A stretch of 64,000 nucleotides of DNA, taken from Candidatus Omnitrophota bacterium. Its GTDB lineage: Bacteria; Omnitrophota; Gorgyraeia; Gygaellales; Profunditerraquicolaceae. The stretch lies in the NCBI GenBank assembly GCA_028715415.1, contig JAQURX010000005.1:64043-128042 (forward strand), given 5' to 3'. The position numbers and the translations under genes were made by a program. Under the pieces are notes generated by a model, which worked only from the letters and a program-made list of their open reading frames with translations, was not told where the DNA came from and did not search any database. Below, one piece after another: positions 11,374 to 56,230 of the stretch (position 1 is its first letter; each line of letters begins with the position of its first letter).

Positions 11374-11481
11374 TTTGTCATTCCCTCTAACTTTGTCATT
11401 CCCGCGAAAGCGGGAATCTACGCTATAGCCTGGATCCCTGCTGGAGTTTATCCCTGCGAAAGCAGGGACAGGGATGACAAC
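11374..11481. repeat. Palindromic repeat element: half-site + hairpin A (ATTCCCGCGAAAGCGGGAAT) + complex hairpin-B variant
   Basis: tttgtcattccc...tgtcattcccgcgaaagcgggaatctacgctat...tggatccctgctggagtttatccctgcgaaagcagggacagggatgacaa; same B variant recurs at 24107-24160. Confidence 0.85.
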
Positions 11482-24106: not shown

Positions 24107-24284
24107 TGGATCCCTGCTGGAGTTTATCCCTGCGAAAGCAGGGACAGGGATGACAATCGCATGTCATTCCCGCGCCCTTCTGTCATTCCCGCGTTCTTCA
24201 TGTCATTCCCGCGAAAGCGGGAATCTACGCTATTTAGTGGATCCCTGCTTTCGCAGGGATGACATTGCCCTGCAGGGATGACAG
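24107..24284. repeat. Composite palindromic element filling the oppA-oppB intergenic region
   Basis: B-variant hairpin + three TGTCATTCCCGCG(CCCTTC) half-sites + hairpin A + hairpin B + extra CCCTGCAGGGATGACA. Confidence 0.85.
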
Positions 24285-28383: not shown

Positions 28384-29202
28384 ATGATAAATCTTAACTA
28401 TATAATCTGGGCACTTATCGCAACCCTATATGCCCCAACATTCTACTTCCTTTATCGTTCAGGCTGGGAATATATTGACTATACCCATGCTTATTTCATT
28501 TTACCTGTCTCTTTAGGGCTTATTTGGTATAAGCGGGCTTACCTAAAGAAAGCTTTTGATAAATCAATCCCTACTGTTGTTTCAAAAACAGGCCTGGCGC
28601 TTTTTATTGCTTCAGCTGCGCTCTTTATTATTGGCTATAGAAATGGTTTTAATTTTATTGCTACATTCTCCCTCATACCTCTTTTATTCGGCTTATCACT
28701 TTATTTATATGGCAGAAAAGTAACCAGAGCCTTAGTTTTTCCTTTTTCCTACCTTTTCTTGCTTGTTCCTATTCCAAGCGGGATATTAGACAGTATTACT
28801 GTTCCCATGAGATACGGAATTTCAGTTCTCACCGAAATTATACTTAAAACATTTAACTATCCAATAACCAGAGAGGGCTTGCTTTTAAAACTACGAAGCC
28901 ATGAAATTTATATGGGCGCTCCTTGCAGCGGGTTCCGATCGCTTATCACAATGATTTCTTTAGGGCTTGTATACGTATATTTAAGCAAGAATAACCGGAA
29001 AAATAAGATTCTTCTCTTATCATCAATTATTCCGTTTGCTTTAATCGGAAATCTCATAAGAGTAGTCTCAATGTGTTTGGTAACTTTTTATTTTGGCGAT
29101 TCAATTGGCCAAAAATACCATGACATAAGCGGATATATGATTTTTGTTTTCCTTATTCTTGGTTTAGTCGGTTTGGAAGCATTACTTAATAAACGAAAAT
29201 GA
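28384..29202 (+). CDS. Exosortase family protein (EpsH/XrtA-like polytopic membrane transpeptidase)
   Basis: 272 aa, ~8 TM; conserved Cys in APCSGFRS and downstream Asn/Arg in GNLIRV, as in exosortase/archaeosortase active sites; adjacent to four PEP-CTERM genes. Confidence 0.6.
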   Translation: MINLNYIIWALIATLYAPTFYFLYRSGWEYIDYTHAYFILPVSLGLIWYKRAYLKKAFDKSIPTVVSKTGLALFIASAALFIIGYRNGFNFIATFSLIPLLFGLSLYLYGRKVTRALVFPFSYLFLLVPIPSGILDSITVPMRYGISVLTEIILKTFNYPITREGLLLKLRSHEIYMGAPCSGFRSLITMISLGLVYVYLSKNNRKNKILLLSSIIPFALIGNLIRVVSMCLVTFYFGDSIGQKYHDISGYMIFVFLILGLVGLEALLNKRK

Positions 29203-29834
29203 AAAATAAAAAAGAAATTCTAGTTATAGCAGTTCTTTTATTCTCCGTCGCTGTAAGCTTCGGGATTCCAAAACCAAAATACGAAAGCCTTAATATATTA
29301 TCAAAAATTGACGTGCCATGGAGAACCAATTACTGGATTAGCCAAGACGTATCAAATAAATTTGACACTCGGGACCAGCGATATAACTTTATCGGTAATA
29401 TCTTCGGCCGCGCTTACGTTAACAGGTTAGGCGAGAGATTGCTTTTCTTAATCTTAGATGCGGGGAATTTCCATAATCCAAAGGTTTGCTTTGGAGGTTC
29501 AGGATATAAAATTAGTGACTTCGCTGACACTCAACTAAAAGTTGGAAACAAGGTTTTTGTAGCTAAAACACTTTATGTTCAAAAAGAATCAGAAAATACG
29601 CTACTTGTTTACTGGATCTGCATTGATAAAAAGATTGTAAACTGGGGTGGACAAAAGATACTTGAATTCTGGAATACATTATTGAATAAAAAGAAAGCGG
29701 GATTAATGCTGCGGCTTGAAATCCCTACAACCGAAGGAAACATTCCAAACGCTCAAAGACTTGCCAATGAATTCCTCAACGAAATCGCTTCAAACATCAA
29801 ACCCGACCAAGCCGAATACCTCTTTGGTAAATAG
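29199..29834 (+). CDS. EpsI-like exosortase-associated periplasmic protein
   Basis: 211 aa, N-terminal TM anchor, translationally coupled to the exosortase (ATGA overlap). Confidence 0.4.
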   Translation: MKNKKEILVIAVLLFSVAVSFGIPKPKYESLNILSKIDVPWRTNYWISQDVSNKFDTRDQRYNFIGNIFGRAYVNRLGERLLFLILDAGNFHNPKVCFGGSGYKISDFADTQLKVGNKVFVAKTLYVQKESENTLLVYWICIDKKIVNWGGQKILEFWNTLLNKKKAGLMLRLEIPTTEGNIPNAQRLANEFLNEIASNIKPDQAEYLFGK

Positions 29835-29860
29835 CATTTCTTAATTAGTATAATAATTCT

Positions 29861-30037
29861 GGATCCCTGCTTTCGCAGGGATGACAAACTATACTCCAAA
29901 TCTTAACTGTTTTTTATGCCATCTAAGCGTCTTTTATGTCATTACCTGAACCTTGTCATTCCCAGAACCTTGTCATTCCCTGAACTTTGTCATTCCCTGA
30001 ACTTTGTCATTCCCGCGAAAGCGGGAATCTACGCTAT
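29861..30037. repeat. Repeat element: hairpin B, 47-bp spacer, four tandem CTTTGTCATTCCCTGAA half-site units, hairpin A
   Basis: ggatccctgctttcgcagggatgacaa ... cttgtcattcccagaaccttgtcattccctgaactttgtcattccctgaactttgtcattcccgcgaaagcgggaatctacgctat. Confidence 0.85.
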
Positions 30038-30328
30038 ATCCTTATATAAATCTCTCCAATGGGAATTTCTTTTCTCAATCAACTCAATCTTCCAAACTCT
30101 TTTCCACTTTTTTATACATTTCTCACGAATAATCGCACTATTGATATCTTCCGCTATTTCATAGTAAACTAAATCGTGGACACGATATTTTTTAGTAAAT
30201 CCTTCAATAATATCATTTTTATGTTCGTATACCCTTAACAACAAATTATTAGTAACCCCAGTATATAACGTACCTTTCTTTCCGCTTGCCATAATATATA
30301 CATAATAACTTTTATCCATATCTGTCAT
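30029..30328 (-). CDS. GIY-YIG nuclease-domain protein (UPF0213-like, ~96-99 aa)
   Basis: YYVYIMASGKKGTLYTGVTNNLLLRVYEHKN = GIY-YIG motif with conserved R and E. Last three codons and TAG lie inside hairpin A; annotated ATG lies inside a TGTCATTCCC half-site, so the true start may be the M at 30319. Confidence 0.75.
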   Translation of the reverse strand: MTDMDKSYYVYIMASGKKGTLYTGVTNNLLLRVYEHKNDIIEGFTKKYRVHDLVYYEIAEDINSAIIREKCIKKWKRVWKIELIEKRNSHWRDLYKDIA

Positions 30329-30425
30329 TCCCGCGCCCTTCTGTCATTCCCGCGCCCTTCTGTCATTCCCGCAAAAGCGGGAATCTACGCTATATAGTGG
30401 ATCCCTGCTTTCGCAGGGATGACAA
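30323..30425. repeat. Repeat element: 3x TGTCATTCCCGCGCCCTTC + hairpin A (GCAAAAGC loop variant) + hairpin B
   Basis: tgtcattcccgcgcccttctgtcattcccgcgcccttctgtcattcccgcaaaagcgggaatctacgctatatagtggatccctgctttcgcagggatgacaag. Confidence 0.85.
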
Positions 30426-30428
30426 GAG

Positions 30429-30941
30429 TTAATTTAACCCAAACCTTGGCTTAGGTGGCTCAGGTGGTGGCTCAAGCAGCTTCTTTATTGCTTCAAAGAT
30501 TACTTGGATATCTGTTTCGTGCAGCTGATACTTTCTTTCTAATTCTTCCAACTTCTCTGCTAATTCTTTATGCGTAAGAAGCAACTCTCGAATTCTTACA
30601 AAAGCCCGCATTATAGCGATATTAACCTGAACCGCTCTTTCAGAATTAAGAACACTTGAAAGCATCGCTACTCCTTCTTGAGTAAAAACATACGGTGTGC
30701 TTGAAGAATGTTTTAATAGCTTAAACCGGTCACAATTTGTGACCAGTTCGTTTTTCTCTTTTTCTGATAAACTAAACATAAAATCTCCTGGGAAACGATT
30801 ACGATTTCTCTTTACTGATTGATTCAATACCTTTGTTCCAATCCCATACAACTCCGCCAAGTCTCTATCCAGCATAACCTTTTTACCTCTTATCACTAAA
30901 ATCTTCGCAGCTACTGCCTCAACAATCAATTCTTTTCCCAT
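30429..30941 (-). CDS. ORF6N-domain (KilA-N-related) DNA-binding protein, paralog 1
   Basis: Start moved to MGKELIV (ATG 30941) with AAGGAGGAAGAAAAT upstream; shares VMLDRDLAELYG...RFP.DFMF...PYVFTEQGVAMLS.VLNS..A.QVNIAIMRAFV..RE.LLTHKELA.KLEELERKY with paralog 2. Confidence 0.65.
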   Translation of the reverse strand: MGKELIVEAVAAKILVIRGKKVMLDRDLAELYGIGTKVLNQSVKRNRNRFPGDFMFSLSEKEKNELVTNCDRFKLLKHSSSTPYVFTQEGVAMLSSVLNSERAVQVNIAIMRAFVRIRELLLTHKELAEKLEELERKYQLHETDIQVIFEAIKKLLEPPPEPPKPRFGLN

Positions 30942-31087
30942 ATTTTCTTCCTCCTTATGCCCAGCAAGGGCACACTGGCGCAAATCCGATAAGCGCCAGG
31001 TGCTACAACAATAGACGAAGAAACTTGCAAAATCTAACACAAAAAAAGCAAAAAAAAGCGGAGAGAATTTCTTCTCTCCGCTAATAT

Positions 31088-31168
31088 TTCATTCCCGCGA
31101 ACGCGGGAATCTACGCTATTTAGTGGATCCCTGCTTTCGCAGGGATGACAACTTCTACAGGGATGACA
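31088..31168. repeat. Repeat element: hairpin A (GCGAACGC variant) + hairpin B + 2x CAGGGATGACA
   Basis: tcattcccgcgaacgcgggaatctacgctatttagtggatccctgctttcgcagggatgacaacttctacagggatgacagttg. Confidence 0.85.
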
Positions 31169-31174
31169 GTTGTA

Positions 31175-31825
31175 TTAAGCTTTCTTTCTTTTAATACGTG
31201 AACCTACAGCTAAAGCTCCACTACCTAACAAAAACAACGCCGAGCTAATTGGCTCTGGAGTTGTTACTACATTTGCATCATGTGAAGGTGGATTAAAATA
31301 CCAGCCGTTTTGATTATTTTCATCAGAGCTTCCATAAGCATCAAAATGGAATTTTAAACCTGAATTAATGAAATCGGTGATTGAAACCGGTATTCCAATC
31401 GTTGTACCAGCAGCTACATCACCAATGGTATATTCTGTCCATTTTGCTGTCCCCTCTGGCCAAAAGATACTATGTGGAGGCAAATAAGTGTGACTTCCTG
31501 TATTAGTAAAGCTGGAATAATAATATGGTGTGGTATTAACAGTTAATTTCCAAGGCTCTGTTGGAGATGAAGTCCCCGGAATAGACAAAACAAGATGTGC
31601 ATCAAAAATAGTAGCGTCGGCAGTATTCTGGAAATTTAGAGTAAAACTCGGATTATGAGTTAGGTCACTTTCTTCTAGCCAAGGGTCACTTGAAATACCG
31701 ACTTCCTCAGCTCCCGGAATACTTAACCAAATCTTAGCCTTACCACCGTTATTATCAGGAGGAGTTGCCCAAGCTGAACCAGCAACAAAAAACAAACATA
31801 CAAGCGTTAAAAATAGTTTTTTCAT
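31175..31825 (-). CDS. PEP-CTERM sorting-domain secreted protein
   Basis: Signal peptide; C-terminus TTPEPISSALFLLGSGALAVGSRIKRKKA (PEP motif, TM helix, basic tail). Confidence 0.7.
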   Translation of the reverse strand: MKKLFLTLVCLFFVAGSAWATPPDNNGGKAKIWLSIPGAEEVGISSDPWLEESDLTHNPSFTLNFQNTADATIFDAHLVLSIPGTSSPTEPWKLTVNTTPYYYSSFTNTGSHTYLPPHSIFWPEGTAKWTEYTIGDVAAGTTIGIPVSITDFINSGLKFHFDAYGSSDENNQNGWYFNPPSHDANVVTTPEPISSALFLLGSGALAVGSRIKRKKA

Positions 31826-32490
31826 CTTACACCTCTTCGTTTTCTTAATCCAACTAATGCGGCTCCGCCTAACAAAAACAACGCACTGCTAATCGGTTCA
31901 GGAGTTGCGGTAATTTTAGTCGTAAAAAATCTCTGGCAATATAAATCATTTCCGCCATTTGTCCAAATCCATTTAGCATTATTATCAATATTAGGATAAT
32001 CTATGTTCCATTTTCCACCATAACCCTGCCCATCATAGGCAAGCTCATCTATAACTCCAAAATTATGAAAATCAAATTGCTCAAGGCGCACTGTCCAATC
32101 AGTTGCGTTGGACAATAAATATTGCGTTCCATTTGCAAACTTAAACCCGCTGCCAGACAATGTAAAATCGCCAATAAAGCCAGCTAAATTAGTTATAGTA
32201 GCAGCACCCAAAACAGTCAAATAATAATCGTGTCCCGGAGTAAGCTGTGTGCTGAAATGAGTTTGAGCGGAATCAGGATCGGGATTAGCGCTTGAACCGC
32301 CGGTTATTAATTGAGCATTCAAGAAATTGGCATCCGTATCATTAATCCAGACGGTAAATTGCCTATCAACAACTACATCCCCTGATAATGTTACTGTAGA
32401 AGCATAAACTGGAGTAAATACGACGAGGGAAATCAATGCAACTAAAAATAATTTAAATTTCATTGGAACCTCTTTGTTTCGGGTTATCAA
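31822..32490 (-). CDS. PEP-CTERM sorting-domain secreted protein
   Basis: C-terminus TATPEPISSALFLLGGAALVGLRKRRGVR. Confidence 0.7.
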   Translation of the reverse strand: MITRNKEVPMKFKLFLVALISLVVFTPVYASTVTLSGDVVVDRQFTVWINDTDANFLNAQLITGGSSANPDPDSAQTHFSTQLTPGHDYYLTVLGAATITNLAGFIGDFTLSGSGFKFANGTQYLLSNATDWTVRLEQFDFHNFGVIDELAYDGQGYGGKWNIDYPNIDNNAKWIWTNGGNDLYCQRFFTTKITATPEPISSALFLLGGAALVGLRKRRGVR

Positions 32491-32618
32491 TTTAGAATTA
32501 CGAAAATCCCGGAAGGATATTTCAACTTTATTATACTAAATCTGACGTACCTGTCAACACTTTTTTAATCTATTTATAAACGAATTTATAAATCAAATTA
32601 GGAAGGAATATCCCTCGC

Positions 32619-32741
32619 TGTCATTCCCGCAGAAGCGGGAATCTACGCTATATAGTGGATCCCTGCTTTCGCAGGGATGACAACTTCTACAGGGATGACA
32701 ACTTCTACAGGGATGACAACTCCTGCAGGGATGACAAATAG
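32619..32741. repeat. Repeat element: hairpin A (GCAGAAGC) + hairpin B + 4 tandem CTTCTACAGGGATGACAA units
   Basis: tgtcattcccgcagaagcgggaatctacgctatatagtggatccctgctttcgcagggatgacaacttctacagggatgacaacttctacagggatgacaactcctgcagggatgacaaatag. Confidence 0.85.
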
Positions 32742-33398
32742 TTAAACCTTCTTTTTTAACCTCACCCCAATCGCCAGCGCCCCGCTTCCTAACAAAAATA
32801 ACGCACTGCTTATCGGCTCAGGCGTAGCTTTAACAGATAAATATGCAGATGGAGGATATTCTAACGATCTAAATGCTACAAAAGGCTGCCCAGGAGCAAG
32901 AATATCCTGCTCCTCTTTCCTTATATTAAAACCAACATAACTTTTACCAGAGCTAATTAAATCATGAACAACAGAAGTAACATCATAATTAAGCGTAGAT
33001 TGATCATTGAATGTAATTGAACCAATGATGTTGCCGCGGGCGTAATCATCAAAGTCTAAGTATCCATCGCCAGCATAAGAATAGATACCTAACGTGTATG
33101 GAAAAGGCCCAAGGCACTCTTCAACCGTTAAATTCAGGCTTGCAGCAATAAATGAATTTTCAATACTTGAAAGAGGAAATTCAAAAAGCGCTCGTGAAGC
33201 AGAACCATTCATATTCATTGCCTGCGGATAACCAGTTGAATTTATATAATCCCCTTGCCCGTCAAACAGATTTGGATATTTACCATCAAAAACAGTTCCA
33301 TCAACCACTGGCGAAACATCAAAAGCCTGTGCATGCAATATAGGTAAAAATATTAAACTACAAAATAATACTGCTATATTTAGAATTCTTGAATTCAT
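32742..33398 (-). CDS. PEP-CTERM sorting-domain secreted protein
   Basis: C-terminus KATPEPISSALFLLGSGALAIGVRLKKKV. Confidence 0.7.
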   Translation of the reverse strand: MNSRILNIAVLFCSLIFLPILHAQAFDVSPVVDGTVFDGKYPNLFDGQGDYINSTGYPQAMNMNGSASRALFEFPLSSIENSFIAASLNLTVEECLGPFPYTLGIYSYAGDGYLDFDDYARGNIIGSITFNDQSTLNYDVTSVVHDLISSGKSYVGFNIRKEEQDILAPGQPFVAFRSLEYPPSAYLSVKATPEPISSALFLLGSGALAIGVRLKKKV

Positions 33399-33400
33399 AT

Positions 33401-34243
33401 TTATCCTTGTTTTCTTTTTCGTAATTTACGCGCTGCAAACAATCCGCTTCCCAATAAAAATAACGCACTGCTTACCGGCTCGGGAGTAACTGAAACATTA
33501 AAATTATCAAAATAAGCTTTACTTGTTCCACCTTCCAAACCAAAACCTGCGCCGAAAGTTTCTGCGGCAAGTAAAATCTTAAAGTCAGTTATATCCGGAT
33601 ATTGCACCTTAAAATCAGTTACTGTATCTTGGACCAAATCACCTTCTTGATCAACAATAGTATTCCCCGAAAGATCAGTAATCCTCATTGTTAAAGTTCC
33701 ACTTCCAGAAGCATCATAATCATACCAAATAGTGCCATCCGTTTCACTTCCTAATCTGGGATAAAGATAACCATTTCCGCTTCCACCTTCTAAAATATAA
33801 TTAGCAAATGTAGTCTGGCCTTTATTTACTTCTGGCCCGGCGCAGAAAATATATGCAGGACTTTCTAAATCACTCGGCCAAAATGCCAGCCCCATCCACA
33901 AATCGCTATCTTTGGTTGTCAAGGGGTTAAAATGAAAATCAGTTCTTGCCGAGAAATTATTATCTAATCCAAATGAAGACTGAGACCTTATCAATGACAA
34001 AGCAGTCTCGTATGTCTTGCTCCAGCCATTTTCATAGCCCGAAGGATTGACGAATTCAAAATGTCCATTTTGATCAACAGAATACAATCTCTCAGGTGTG
34101 CTCCCGCCGTAAAAACCATCCTCCCAAACCGCGGAATTAAAGAGATTATCATTAAAATCATCCGACCAGCCGCTTGTTGCCATTGCCGTTGCAGGTAAAA
34201 CAAATAAACCGCACAATATTAAACCAAAAACAAATCTTTTCAC
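33401..34243 (-). CDS. PEP-CTERM sorting-domain secreted protein
   Basis: C-terminus SVTPEPVSSALFLLGSGLFAARKLRKRKQG. Confidence 0.7.
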   Translation of the reverse strand: MKRFVFGLILCGLFVLPATAMATSGWSDDFNDNLFNSAVWEDGFYGGSTPERLYSVDQNGHFEFVNPSGYENGWSKTYETALSLIRSQSSFGLDNNFSARTDFHFNPLTTKDSDLWMGLAFWPSDLESPAYIFCAGPEVNKGQTTFANYILEGGSGNGYLYPRLGSETDGTIWYDYDASGSGTLTMRITDLSGNTIVDQEGDLVQDTVTDFKVQYPDITDFKILLAAETFGAGFGLEGGTSKAYFDNFNVSVTPEPVSSALFLLGSGLFAARKLRKRKQG

Positions 34244-34344: not shown

Positions 34345-34410
34345 CTGTCATTCCCGCACCCTTCTGTCATTCCTGCATCCCATCTGTCATTCCCGCGAAA
34401 GCGGGAATCC
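34345..34410. repeat. Repeat element: 2 degenerate half-sites + hairpin A (no B partner)
   Basis: tgtcattcccgcacccttctgtcattcctgcatcccatctgtcattcccgcgaaagcgggaatcc. Confidence 0.8.
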
Positions 34411-34434
34411 ATCTTGAAGTCACAATTTGTGACC

Positions 34435-35067: not shown

Positions 35068-35137
35068 ACTGTCATTCCCGCCCCTTCTGTCATTCCCGCC
35101 CCTTCTGTCATTCCCGCGAAAGCGGGAATCTACGCTA
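35068..35137. repeat. Repeat element: 2x TGTCATTCCCGCCCCTTC + hairpin A
   Basis: tgtcattcccgccccttctgtcattcccgccccttctgtcattcccgcgaaagcgggaatctacgctattt. Confidence 0.85.
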
Positions 35138-36850: not shown

Positions 36851-36904
36851 TGTCATTCCCGCGTCCCTTTTGTCATTCCCGCGAAAGCGGGAATCTACGC
36901 TATT
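36851..36904. repeat. Repeat element (half-site + hairpin A) filling the 50-bp gap between convergent genes; candidate bidirectional terminator
   Basis: tgtcattcccgcgtcccttttgtcattcccgcgaaagcgggaatctacgctattt; TagA stop codon (36900-36902) lies inside the element. Confidence 0.8.
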
Positions 36905-49890: not shown

Positions 49891-49904
49891 AATTTATATA
49901 TTCT

Positions 49905-49983
49905 GGATTCCCGCTTTCGCGGGAATGACATTATTAATAGATTCCCGCTTTCGCGGGAATGACAGCCGCTGCGGGAATGACAA
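49905..49983. repeat. Repeat element, reverse orientation: 2x hairpin A (ATTCCCGCTTTCGCGGGAATGACA) + partial
   Basis: ggattcccgctttcgcgggaatgacattattaatagattcccgctttcgcgggaatgacagccgctgcgggaatgacaatag. Confidence 0.85.
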
Positions 49984-50263: not shown

Positions 50264-50281
50264 ACAGCCTCCTTTATTAAT

Positions 50282-50358
50282 AGATTCCCGCTTTCGCGGG
50301 AATGACACCGCTGCGGGAATGACACACTTACTGAATCCCTGCTTTCGCAGGGATGACA
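50282..50358. repeat. Repeat element, reverse orientation: hairpin A + partial A + hairpin B
   Basis: agattcccgctttcgcgggaatgacaccgctgcgggaatgacacacttactgaatccctgctttcgcagggatgacatt. Confidence 0.85.
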
Positions 50359-56015: not shown

Positions 56016-56042
56016 TTAATACTCCTTTTATATTTGTCATTC

Positions 56043-56230
56043 CCGCCCCTGCTTCCGCAGGGGTAAACTGCAGCGGGAATCTACGCTATTTAGTGGATCC
56101 CTGCTTTCGCAGGGATGACAATCACATGTCATTCCCACATTATTTGTCATTCCCGCCCCTGCTTCCGCAGGGGTAAACTGCAGCGGGAATCTACGCTATT
56201 TAGTGGATCCCTGCTTTCGCAGGGATGACA
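56043..56230. repeat. Two tandem copies of a variant composite element in which hairpin A carries a nested hairpin (CCCCTGC-TTCC-GCAGGGG) in its loop
   Basis: tgtcattcccgcccctgcttccgcaggggtaaactgcagcgggaatctacgctatttagtggatccctgctttcgcagggatgaca x2, separated by a degenerate half-site (catgtcattcccacatta). Confidence 0.85.

Follow-up and report, generated by a model that had tools for sequence, protein, structure and literature searches.

We analysed a 64-kb stretch of a metagenome-assembled genome (MAG) of Candidatus Omnitrophota (contig JAQURX010000005.1; hereafter the window), in which a small gene on the minus strand, here called ssn, lies among arrays of a palindromic repeat. The open reading frame (ORF) very likely encodes a site-specific endonuclease of single-stranded DNA (ssDNA) belonging to the Ssn family, and the two hairpin variants of the repeat, A and B, are very likely its cognate SRMs, the hairpins that Ssn proteins recognize. 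It may be noted that the Ssn/NTS (SRM) system has already been published (Chenal et al. 2025, Nat Commun 16:2388, March 2025; PMC11893778). What is new is the Omnitrophota member, a phylum that the main text of that paper does not mention. The pairing of nuclease and hairpin is supported by the features of the gene, by those of the repeats and by their joint recurrence in other genomes.

In the published system, the Neisseria meningitidis protein SsnA (94 aa, CDD family cd10448) consists of a single GIY-YIG domain and binds the NTS hairpin CGTCATTCCCGCGMAVGCGGGAATCYRG as ssDNA only, and not double-stranded DNA (dsDNA), RNA or the reverse strand (PMC11893778). The preliminary description of the window had taken stand-alone GIY-YIG nucleases to be devoid of a DNA-binding module of their own, a view contradicted by the dissociation constant of 4.5 nM (4.5e-9 M) with which this single domain binds its site (PMC11893778). 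The cut lies a few nt 5′ of the motif and is abolished by Y6A, Y17A and E64A; cutting depends most on the three nt 5′ of the palindrome and binding most on the C just 3′ of it (PMC11893778). ssDNA-only binding and cutting, strand specificity and cut position were shown by experiment for four homologs, and ssn genes are typically flanked by their own hairpins, with at least 1 SRM nearby in 71% of the homologs and SRMs on both sides in 42% (PMC11893778).

The GIY-YIG ORF of the window (30029..30328, minus, 99 aa) has the GIY-YIG family PF01541 as its sole Pfam match (E 1.6e-13, residues 8-80), and NCBIfam gave no match. A public record (P0001) of 96 aa is 100% identical to the window protein, is annotated only as "GIY-YIG nuclease family protein" and starts at the second ATG (30317-30319, MDKSYYVYIM...). 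The equivalent start (MxKxYYVYIL...) is found in all homologs among the 120 listed, and since both annotation and homologs begin there, the ATG at 30326-30328 is most likely just the start of the longest ORF. It was claimed earlier that the annotated ATG falls inside a repeat half-site; this is true of the ATG at 30326-30328, which lies in a TGTCATTCCC half-site, while the annotated one is 3 nt outside. At the other end, the claim that the last three codons and the stop lie inside hairpin A stands in part. The TAG stop (plus-strand CTA, 30029-30031) is within the element, together with the last two codons and not three, but all of these are in its conserved 3′ tail CTACGCTAT, outside the 8-bp stem at 30009-30028. 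This is indeed the only GIY-YIG ORF present, as tblastn found no second copy of the gene in the 64-kb window.

The protein agrees with SsnA in its essentials. Family-invariant residues include Y8, Y19, R29, H33, E66 and N85; of these, Y8, Y19 and E66 are invariant across 32 homologs and have the spacing of the catalytic Y6, Y17 and E64 of SsnA, the offset of +2 residues being consistent with a protein of 96 aa as against 94. The AlphaFold2 model (predicted local distance difference test score 95) is a single compact domain with a confident GIY-YIG fold. The nearest solved structures are uncharacterised UPF0213 proteins and the Slx1 nuclease domain (Foldseek E about 1e-2 and 14-21% identity for the latter), which agrees with an earlier study in which the minimal GIY-YIG proteins of prokaryotes fell into the Slx1 cluster (PMC1564403). 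The family is very large, with at least 7,996 of 8,000 scored candidates passing E 0.001, and proteins of about 65-75% identity to that of the window occur in MAGs labelled Caldiserica, Elusimicrobia, Nitrospirae, Nitrospinae, Daviesbacteria (candidate phyla radiation, CPR) and others. As a side observation, gene callers translate through the hairpins (P0024, P0026, P0086, P0098, P0109, P0121): spurious N-terminal extensions of Ssn homologs (MSFPRKRES..., ...PAEAGIQ...) are translated palindrome, and neighbouring genes gain hairpin-encoded C-termini.

The statement that one repeat family pervades the window is borne out. The half-site core TGTCATTCCC occurs 28 times against 0.10 expected and hairpin B (GGATCCCTGCTTTCGCAGGGATGACA) 8 times against 0 expected, the repeat clusters occupying 12 intergenic gaps. 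Hairpin A consists of TGTCATTCCCGC-GAAA-GCGGGAATCTAC followed by the tail GCTAT, with the stem ATTCCCGC; hairpin B, given here for the opposite strand, is TGTCATCCCTGC-GAAA-GCAGGGATCCAC, with the stem ATCCCTGC. Folded as ssDNA, A reaches -9.0 kcal/mol (z about -4.2) and B -8.6 kcal/mol (z about -4.5). The two are often joined tail to tail in a 63-bp composite (7 copies) with a 12-nt linker made of the 8-nt spacer GCTATATA and the CTAC flank of A; the composite beside ssn (30361..30424) folds as ssDNA into two 8-bp hairpins (-17.5 kcal/mol, z -5.4). Tandem 5′ half-sites (TGTCATTCCCGC plus a C/T-rich spacer of 5-9 nt, with a period of 17-21 nt) precede A or B on the outer side only, which is always the 5′ (cleavage) side of the motif (24163-24201, 29937-30004, 30323-30360, 32682-32737, 34346-34385 and 35070-35106). 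Hairpins of the same family are also nested in the loops of others (11433-11478, 24109-24154, 56036-56084 and 56146-56194). Every A copy in the window bears the tail CTACGCTAT, whose reverse complement ATAGCGTAG is the last two ssn codons plus the stop (9 nt), and the composite at 30361-30424 has 11 nt in common with the gene end.

Read on the minus strand, the locus begins with B (30424-30397), followed by the 12-nt linker, A (30388-30361), two half-sites and then ssn from ATG to TAG; beyond the gene come A (30032-30005), four half-sites, about 50 nt of other sequence and a solo B (29886-29859). On the gene strand, the upstream SRM of ssn is thus the B of the composite, whose distance to the ATG is 78 nt. 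The coordinates of these and of the other elements are collected in the table.

Table. ssn, its flanking elements and the other repeat clusters of the window
Feature	Position	Strand	Basis
ssn gene, 96-aa single-domain GIY-YIG nuclease (very likely Ssn family)	30029..30319	minus	Pfam, P0001 identity, invariant residues, AlphaFold2
Hairpin A at the ssn stop (SRM, TGTCATTCCCGCGAAAGCGGGAATCTAC + tail GCTAT; predicted cleavable strand plus)	30005..30037	plus	fits SRM pattern; ssDNA fold
One-sided 5′ half-site array (TGTCATTCCC + 7-nt spacer, period 17 nt, first copy degenerate), outer side of hairpin A	29937..30004	plus	
Solo hairpin B (SRM-like, ATCCCTGC stem; predicted cleavable strand minus)	29859..29886	minus	
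Two 5′ half-sites (TGTCATTCCCGC + GCCCTTC, period 19 nt), 3 nt from ssn start 30319	30323..30360	plus	
Composite: hairpin A (30361-30388, plus), spacer GCTATATA (30389-30396), hairpin B (30397-30424, minus)	30361..30424		
SRM cluster: one half-site, hairpin A, hairpin B with a hairpin nested in its loop	11376..11478		
SRM cluster: nested hairpin B, two half-sites, A+B composite, one B half-site	24109..24282		
A+B composite and one B half-site, upstream of the ORF6N gene	31087..31167		
A+B composite and three B half-sites, between PEP-CTERM genes	32619..32737		
Two half-sites and hairpin A	34346..34412	plus	
Two half-sites and hairpin A	35070..35133	plus	
One half-site and hairpin A	36851..36898	plus	
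Two hairpin A copies and one half-site; copy at 49903 with 1 mismatch to the Neisseria NTS	49903..49981	minus	
Hairpin A, one half-site and a B-like hairpin, co-oriented	50280..50357	minus	
Two A+B composites, each with a hairpin nested in the loop of A	56035..56229		

On applying the published SRM pattern HGTCWYN(0-2)YYVSBRHN(0-5)WNVSBRGN(0-2)RNCYNB, we found 10 matches in the 64 kb, whereas 100 shuffled versions gave 0.03 on average, and all 10 are hairpin A. Nine window sites lie within 2 mismatches in 28 nt of the Neisseria NTS and one (49903, minus) within 1. The locus resembles the Ssn/NTS system in its protein of about 95 aa (~94-100 aa being expected of the family) with a single GIY-YIG domain, no extra DNA-binding domain and equally spaced catalytic Tyr, Tyr and Glu, in a hairpin A near-identical to NTS, in a gene flanked by inverted SRMs (A over the stop and B in opposite orientation upstream) and in hairpins that are intergenic, clustered and placed beside surface-protein genes. 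It differs in the host, an Omnitrophota MAG, in having two variants (A with stem ATTCCCGC and B with stem ATCCCTGC) as a fixed pair, and in the stereotyped 63-bp A+B composite, the one-sided half-site arrays and the nested copies, which are absent from the main text of the paper.

The window alone could not separate a functional pairing from an insertion hotspot, because many of its genes are bracketed by the same repeats. The earlier statement that the gene is bounded by repeats is correct as far as both flanks are concerned, yet this is not special locally, the 12 gaps being filled in the same way. It is recurrence in unrelated genomes that makes the pairing significant. We used a comparative set of 80 homologous loci (one genome per species scanned, more than 15 phyla, 445 kb) and a strict definition of the hairpin (perfect stem of at least 7 bp plus asymmetric flanks). 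In nearly all loci the upstream hairpin reads tGTC-ATTCCCGC-loop-GCGGGAAT-CCAg and the downstream one is the inverse, cTGG-ATTCCCGC-loop-GCGGGAAT-GACa. Within 60 nt upstream of the gene, 44 hairpins of the expected type were found against 4 of the opposite type, and within 60 nt downstream 57 against 11, while more than 500 nt away from the gene only 47 hairpins of both types taken together were found in about 342 kb; this amounts to an enrichment beside the gene of roughly 100-fold or more. A correctly oriented cognate hairpin is present on at least one side in 67 of the 80 loci and on both sides in 48. Stems vary between genomes (CCCGC, CCTGC, CCGGC, CCCCGC, GCCGG and others) while staying paired, and the hairpin arms are closer to each other within a locus (mean Hamming distance 1.29) than between loci (2.48), none of 10,000 permutations giving so low a value. 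Protein and hairpin distances are weakly correlated (Mantel r 0.17, p 0.0045).

The peculiarities of the window also have counterparts elsewhere. Its A/B combination (upstream ATCCCTGC, downstream ATTCCCGC) is found in a Planctomycetales MAG (L022), and its unusual order of composite, half-sites and gene in L103. Half-site arrays occur in 14 of the 80 loci, and examples are seen in L016, L017, L018, L022, L074 and L103, with spacers that are alike across loci and phyla (GCCCCTTC in L017; GCGCCCTTC and GCCCCTTC in the window). On the CPR-like contig of L103 (1940-2500), five 20-nt repeats (GATTAAAATTATGAATGACA) come after composite, half-site and ssn, and the final one fuses with the start-codon context of the next gene (avd). 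The proposal of a nuclease acting in trans on the palindromic elements, with a logic like that of REP (repetitive extragenic palindromic) sequences and their RAYT proteins, is hence supported by the 67 of 80 loci with a cognate hairpin and by the four homologs that cut theirs (PMC11893778). As regards genome-wide co-occurrence, the published survey found Ssn encoded in 81% of the genomes that contain over 200 SRMs (PMC11893778).

Some points weigh against the identification of the ORF as an Ssn nuclease with A and B as its sites. Family membership is suggested by protein size, residues, SRMs and flanking layout rather than by CDD cd10448 or an alignment with SsnA. Hairpin B, with its ATCCCTGC stem, falls outside the published SRM pattern though its architecture is the same. 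The usual SRM place 5-40 nt upstream of the start is empty here, an extra A and two half-sites being interposed so that B is displaced to its distance of 78 nt. That the window protein cuts A and/or B is presumed from experiments on homologs outside Omnitrophota, and any cellular role would be carried over from Neisseria, the only host with a demonstrated one.

The rival explanations may be weighed against this background. An unrelated GIY-YIG gene could have come to lie by coincidence in an intergenic hotspot of accumulating repeats, the alternative that the preliminary description itself had offered, and the presence of the same repeats around many other window genes and in 12 gaps would fit this. 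But the pairing and its orientation rule recur in the 67 loci of unrelated genomes at the enrichment given above, and homologs have been shown to cut this very hairpin (PMC11893778), so that we regard coincidence as extremely improbable. Scarcely more credible is that the hairpins act as RNA (terminators, mRNA stabilisers or processing sites) with the nuclease irrelevant to them. They are intergenic, stable and near gene ends, as such a function would have it, yet there is no T-run after either hairpin, Rfam finds nothing in the window and SsnA does not bind RNA (PMC11893778). Also, the asymmetric flanks (GTC and CC) are conserved outside the stem and the orientation around ssn is strict, which fits recognition by a protein and argues against an RNA-level function. 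The reading as an RNA terminator was rejected on these grounds.

A classical GIY-YIG homing endonuclease gene, whose product cuts dsDNA at an empty allele and which is copied in by repair, has in its favour that GIY-YIG domains are common in homing endonucleases and that the gene is small and free-standing. This too is extremely improbable, as the 96 aa are the catalytic domain alone without a DNA-binding extension, the gene is in neither an intron nor a phage, and homologs are inactive on dsDNA (PMC11893778). For an I-TevI-type enzyme in particular, the DNA-binding module is missing and the setting is chromosomal and intergenic, near exosortase and glycolysis genes. An Slx1 orthologue was rejected since there is no C-terminal RING/zinc-finger domain, for which 96 aa leave no room, and only the fold of the nuclease domain is similar. 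Membership in RAYT was rejected as well, the protein having GIY-YIG only and not the HUH/Y1 transposase domain (Y1_Tnp, PF01797).

Among known systems besides Ssn/NTS, the REP/REPIN-RAYT pairs are alike in having one gene per repeat family, flanked by inverted, short, asymmetric hairpins that are scattered intergenically, in recognition at the ssDNA level and in repeats that occur as doublets; the difference lies in the enzyme, Ssn being a GIY-YIG hydrolase and not HUH/Y1, with no covalent intermediate and no known transposition chemistry. The IS200/IS605 elements share subterminal hairpins that are read as ssDNA on one strand and cut a short distance 5′, without target-site duplication, but the ssn element has neither TnpA (Y1) nor TnpB, is only about 0.4 kb and its mobility is hypothetical. 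The dRS3 repeats of Neisseria have the same palindrome core ATTCCC-N8-GGGAAT in another phylum, the units of the window being minimal (hairpin pairs and half-sites). The UPF0213/Slx1-like proteins BH0048 (1ZG2) and EF2693 (1YWL) are the closest solved structures and have the same minimal domain, though they are only about 24% identical to the window protein and have no known substrate. A literature search for GIY-YIG proteins tied to REP/RAYT-type repeats returned nothing relevant, and it was the hairpin sequence that led to the Ssn paper.

If the window protein behaves as its homologs do, DNA that turns single-stranded (incoming transforming DNA, or DNA in replication or repair) would allow the GTCAT...CC strand to fold into an 8-bp hairpin with a GAAA loop. 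Binding by the Ssn protein would involve both this hairpin and the asymmetric sequences next to it (5′ GTC and 3′ C), and hydrolysis of the same strand would follow a few nt 5′ of the motif; neither the complementary strand nor dsDNA or RNA would serve as a substrate. By homology, the GTCAT...CC strand of A would be recognized and probably also that of B. As A and B are predicted to be cleavable on opposite strands, every composite, and likewise the flanked ssn, would be cut once at each of its outer ends, in one strand at one end and in the other strand at the other. In N. meningitidis, deletion of ssnA results in ~5-fold more transformation by NTS-bearing DNA, and the function established in Neisseria is to restrict hairpin-bearing transforming ssDNA (PMC11893778). 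Here, we infer, the protein most likely serves to fragment ssDNA that bears the hairpins and would in this way modulate recombination or gene transfer around the genes they flank, among them those for exosortase and PEP-CTERM surface proteins, a parallel to the clustering of NTS near surface-protein genes in Neisseria (PMC11893778). In the window, hairpin clusters stand on both sides of the genes for an exosortase (EpsH), a DUF3485 protein and four PEP-CTERM surface proteins (28384-34243), and an ORF6N-domain gene (30429-31040, minus, Pfam E 1.4e-29) lies exactly between two A+B composites, beside ssn.

Whether the SRM-ssn-SRM unit moves is a separate question. It is possible, though we consider it rather unlikely, that the unit is a present or recent autonomous selfish mobile element and that composites, solo hairpins and half-site arrays are derivatives of it, like miniature inverted-repeat transposable elements (MITEs), which Ssn would release by cutting opposite strands at the two outer ends and which host functions would then insert again. 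Such a reading is compatible with the assignment to the Ssn family and adds a claim on how the repeats spread. Several observations point in this direction. In more than 15 phyla the layout recalls that of an insertion sequence with inverted ends, a point also made in PMC11893778, and proteins of distant phyla are about 70% identical. A complete cassette is found within an unrelated unit, between avd and the reverse-transcriptase (RT) gene of a diversity-generating retroelement (DGR). Some hairpins are nested in the loops of others, one natural population is polymorphic for a 53-nt hairpin unit beside the downstream SRM, and every A copy of the window has the tail that matches the end of ssn. 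This last feature fits descent of the solo and composite A copies from the gene-adjacent copy by internal deletion; it is equally possible that an A copy has overwritten the 3′ end of the gene. As regards a gene remnant in the L103 composites, nothing is kept beyond the SRM flank.

Other findings speak against mobility. Hydrolysis by a GIY-YIG enzyme proceeds without a covalent intermediate, and no strand-transfer activity is known for it. On searching through Avd homologs, a clean empty site for the DGR cassette was not found, the flanks diverging so that no precise target is definable, and no consistent target-site duplication was seen at the cassette ends in the several loci inspected. One identical protein (P0057) on 24 contigs is always in the same genomic context, and the locus is common to two Thiobacillus MAGs, where inheritance is thus vertical. 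The more specific proposal, by which an SRM-ssn-SRM element moves as ssDNA after Ssn cuts at its two outer ends and has given rise, through internal deletion, to the non-autonomous composites, solo hairpins and half-site arrays, appears to us somewhat more doubtful still. A mobiliser role is an unproven hypothesis, and in PMC11893778 as well this role, domestication and the resemblance to insertion sequences and REP/RAYT are given as hypotheses only. The words tandem, Correia and NIME are absent from that paper, and MITEs are apparently not discussed in it, as both hits to "mite" came from a search for these letters anywhere in a word.

The DGR loci and the polymorphic unit deserve a description of their own. 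In L088 (2140-2500; also L089-L097) a hairpin-ssn-hairpin cassette lies between the bAvd and RT genes, and the Avd ORF continues through the upstream hairpin to the C-terminus ...DVIPAKAGIQ. In related DGRs the same slot holds other small genes or a solo hairpin: an NYN-domain gene (L098:730-1470), a 23S_rRNA_IVP four-helix-bundle gene with inverted repeats of its own (AACTTATAACCT / AGGTTATAAGTT; L101:2870-3260), or Bro-N after a solo GTCATTGCGA-type hairpin (L102:1540-2450). It looks as though the avd-RT slot were a hotspot at which small cassettes with inverted-repeat ends accumulate. The 53-nt hairpin unit, which ends in GAATGACA, is carried by L081, L085 and L086 and is missing from L082, L083 and L087, all of one population with an identical Ssn protein. 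It sits directly after the downstream hairpin, and both junctions share GAATGACATTG (L081:2093-2180 against L082:744-780).

With the identification of ssn, the repeat family that dominates the window is accounted for, and a concrete, testable biochemical activity can be assigned to a gene annotated merely as a GIY-YIG nuclease. The core finding is no longer surprising to a specialist, the system having been published. It extends Ssn/SRM to Omnitrophota, and the loci collected come also from MAGs labelled Patescibacteria/CPR groups, Caldiserica, Elusimicrobia and others. The A/B two-variant pair could serve as a natural test of Ssn specificity, while the composites with their gene remnant, the half-site arrays, the nested copies, the DGR cassette and the polymorphic unit provide raw material for the question left open by the paper, namely how the hairpins multiply. 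If the descent from a mobile unit were true, Ssn elements would form a class of mobile element new to prokaryotes, with a hydrolytic GIY-YIG nuclease as its driver; it would also be explained how dRS3/NTS-type repeats arose across bacteria, and all A copies would record their descent at the molecular level in the ssn 3′-end remnant ATAGCGTAG.

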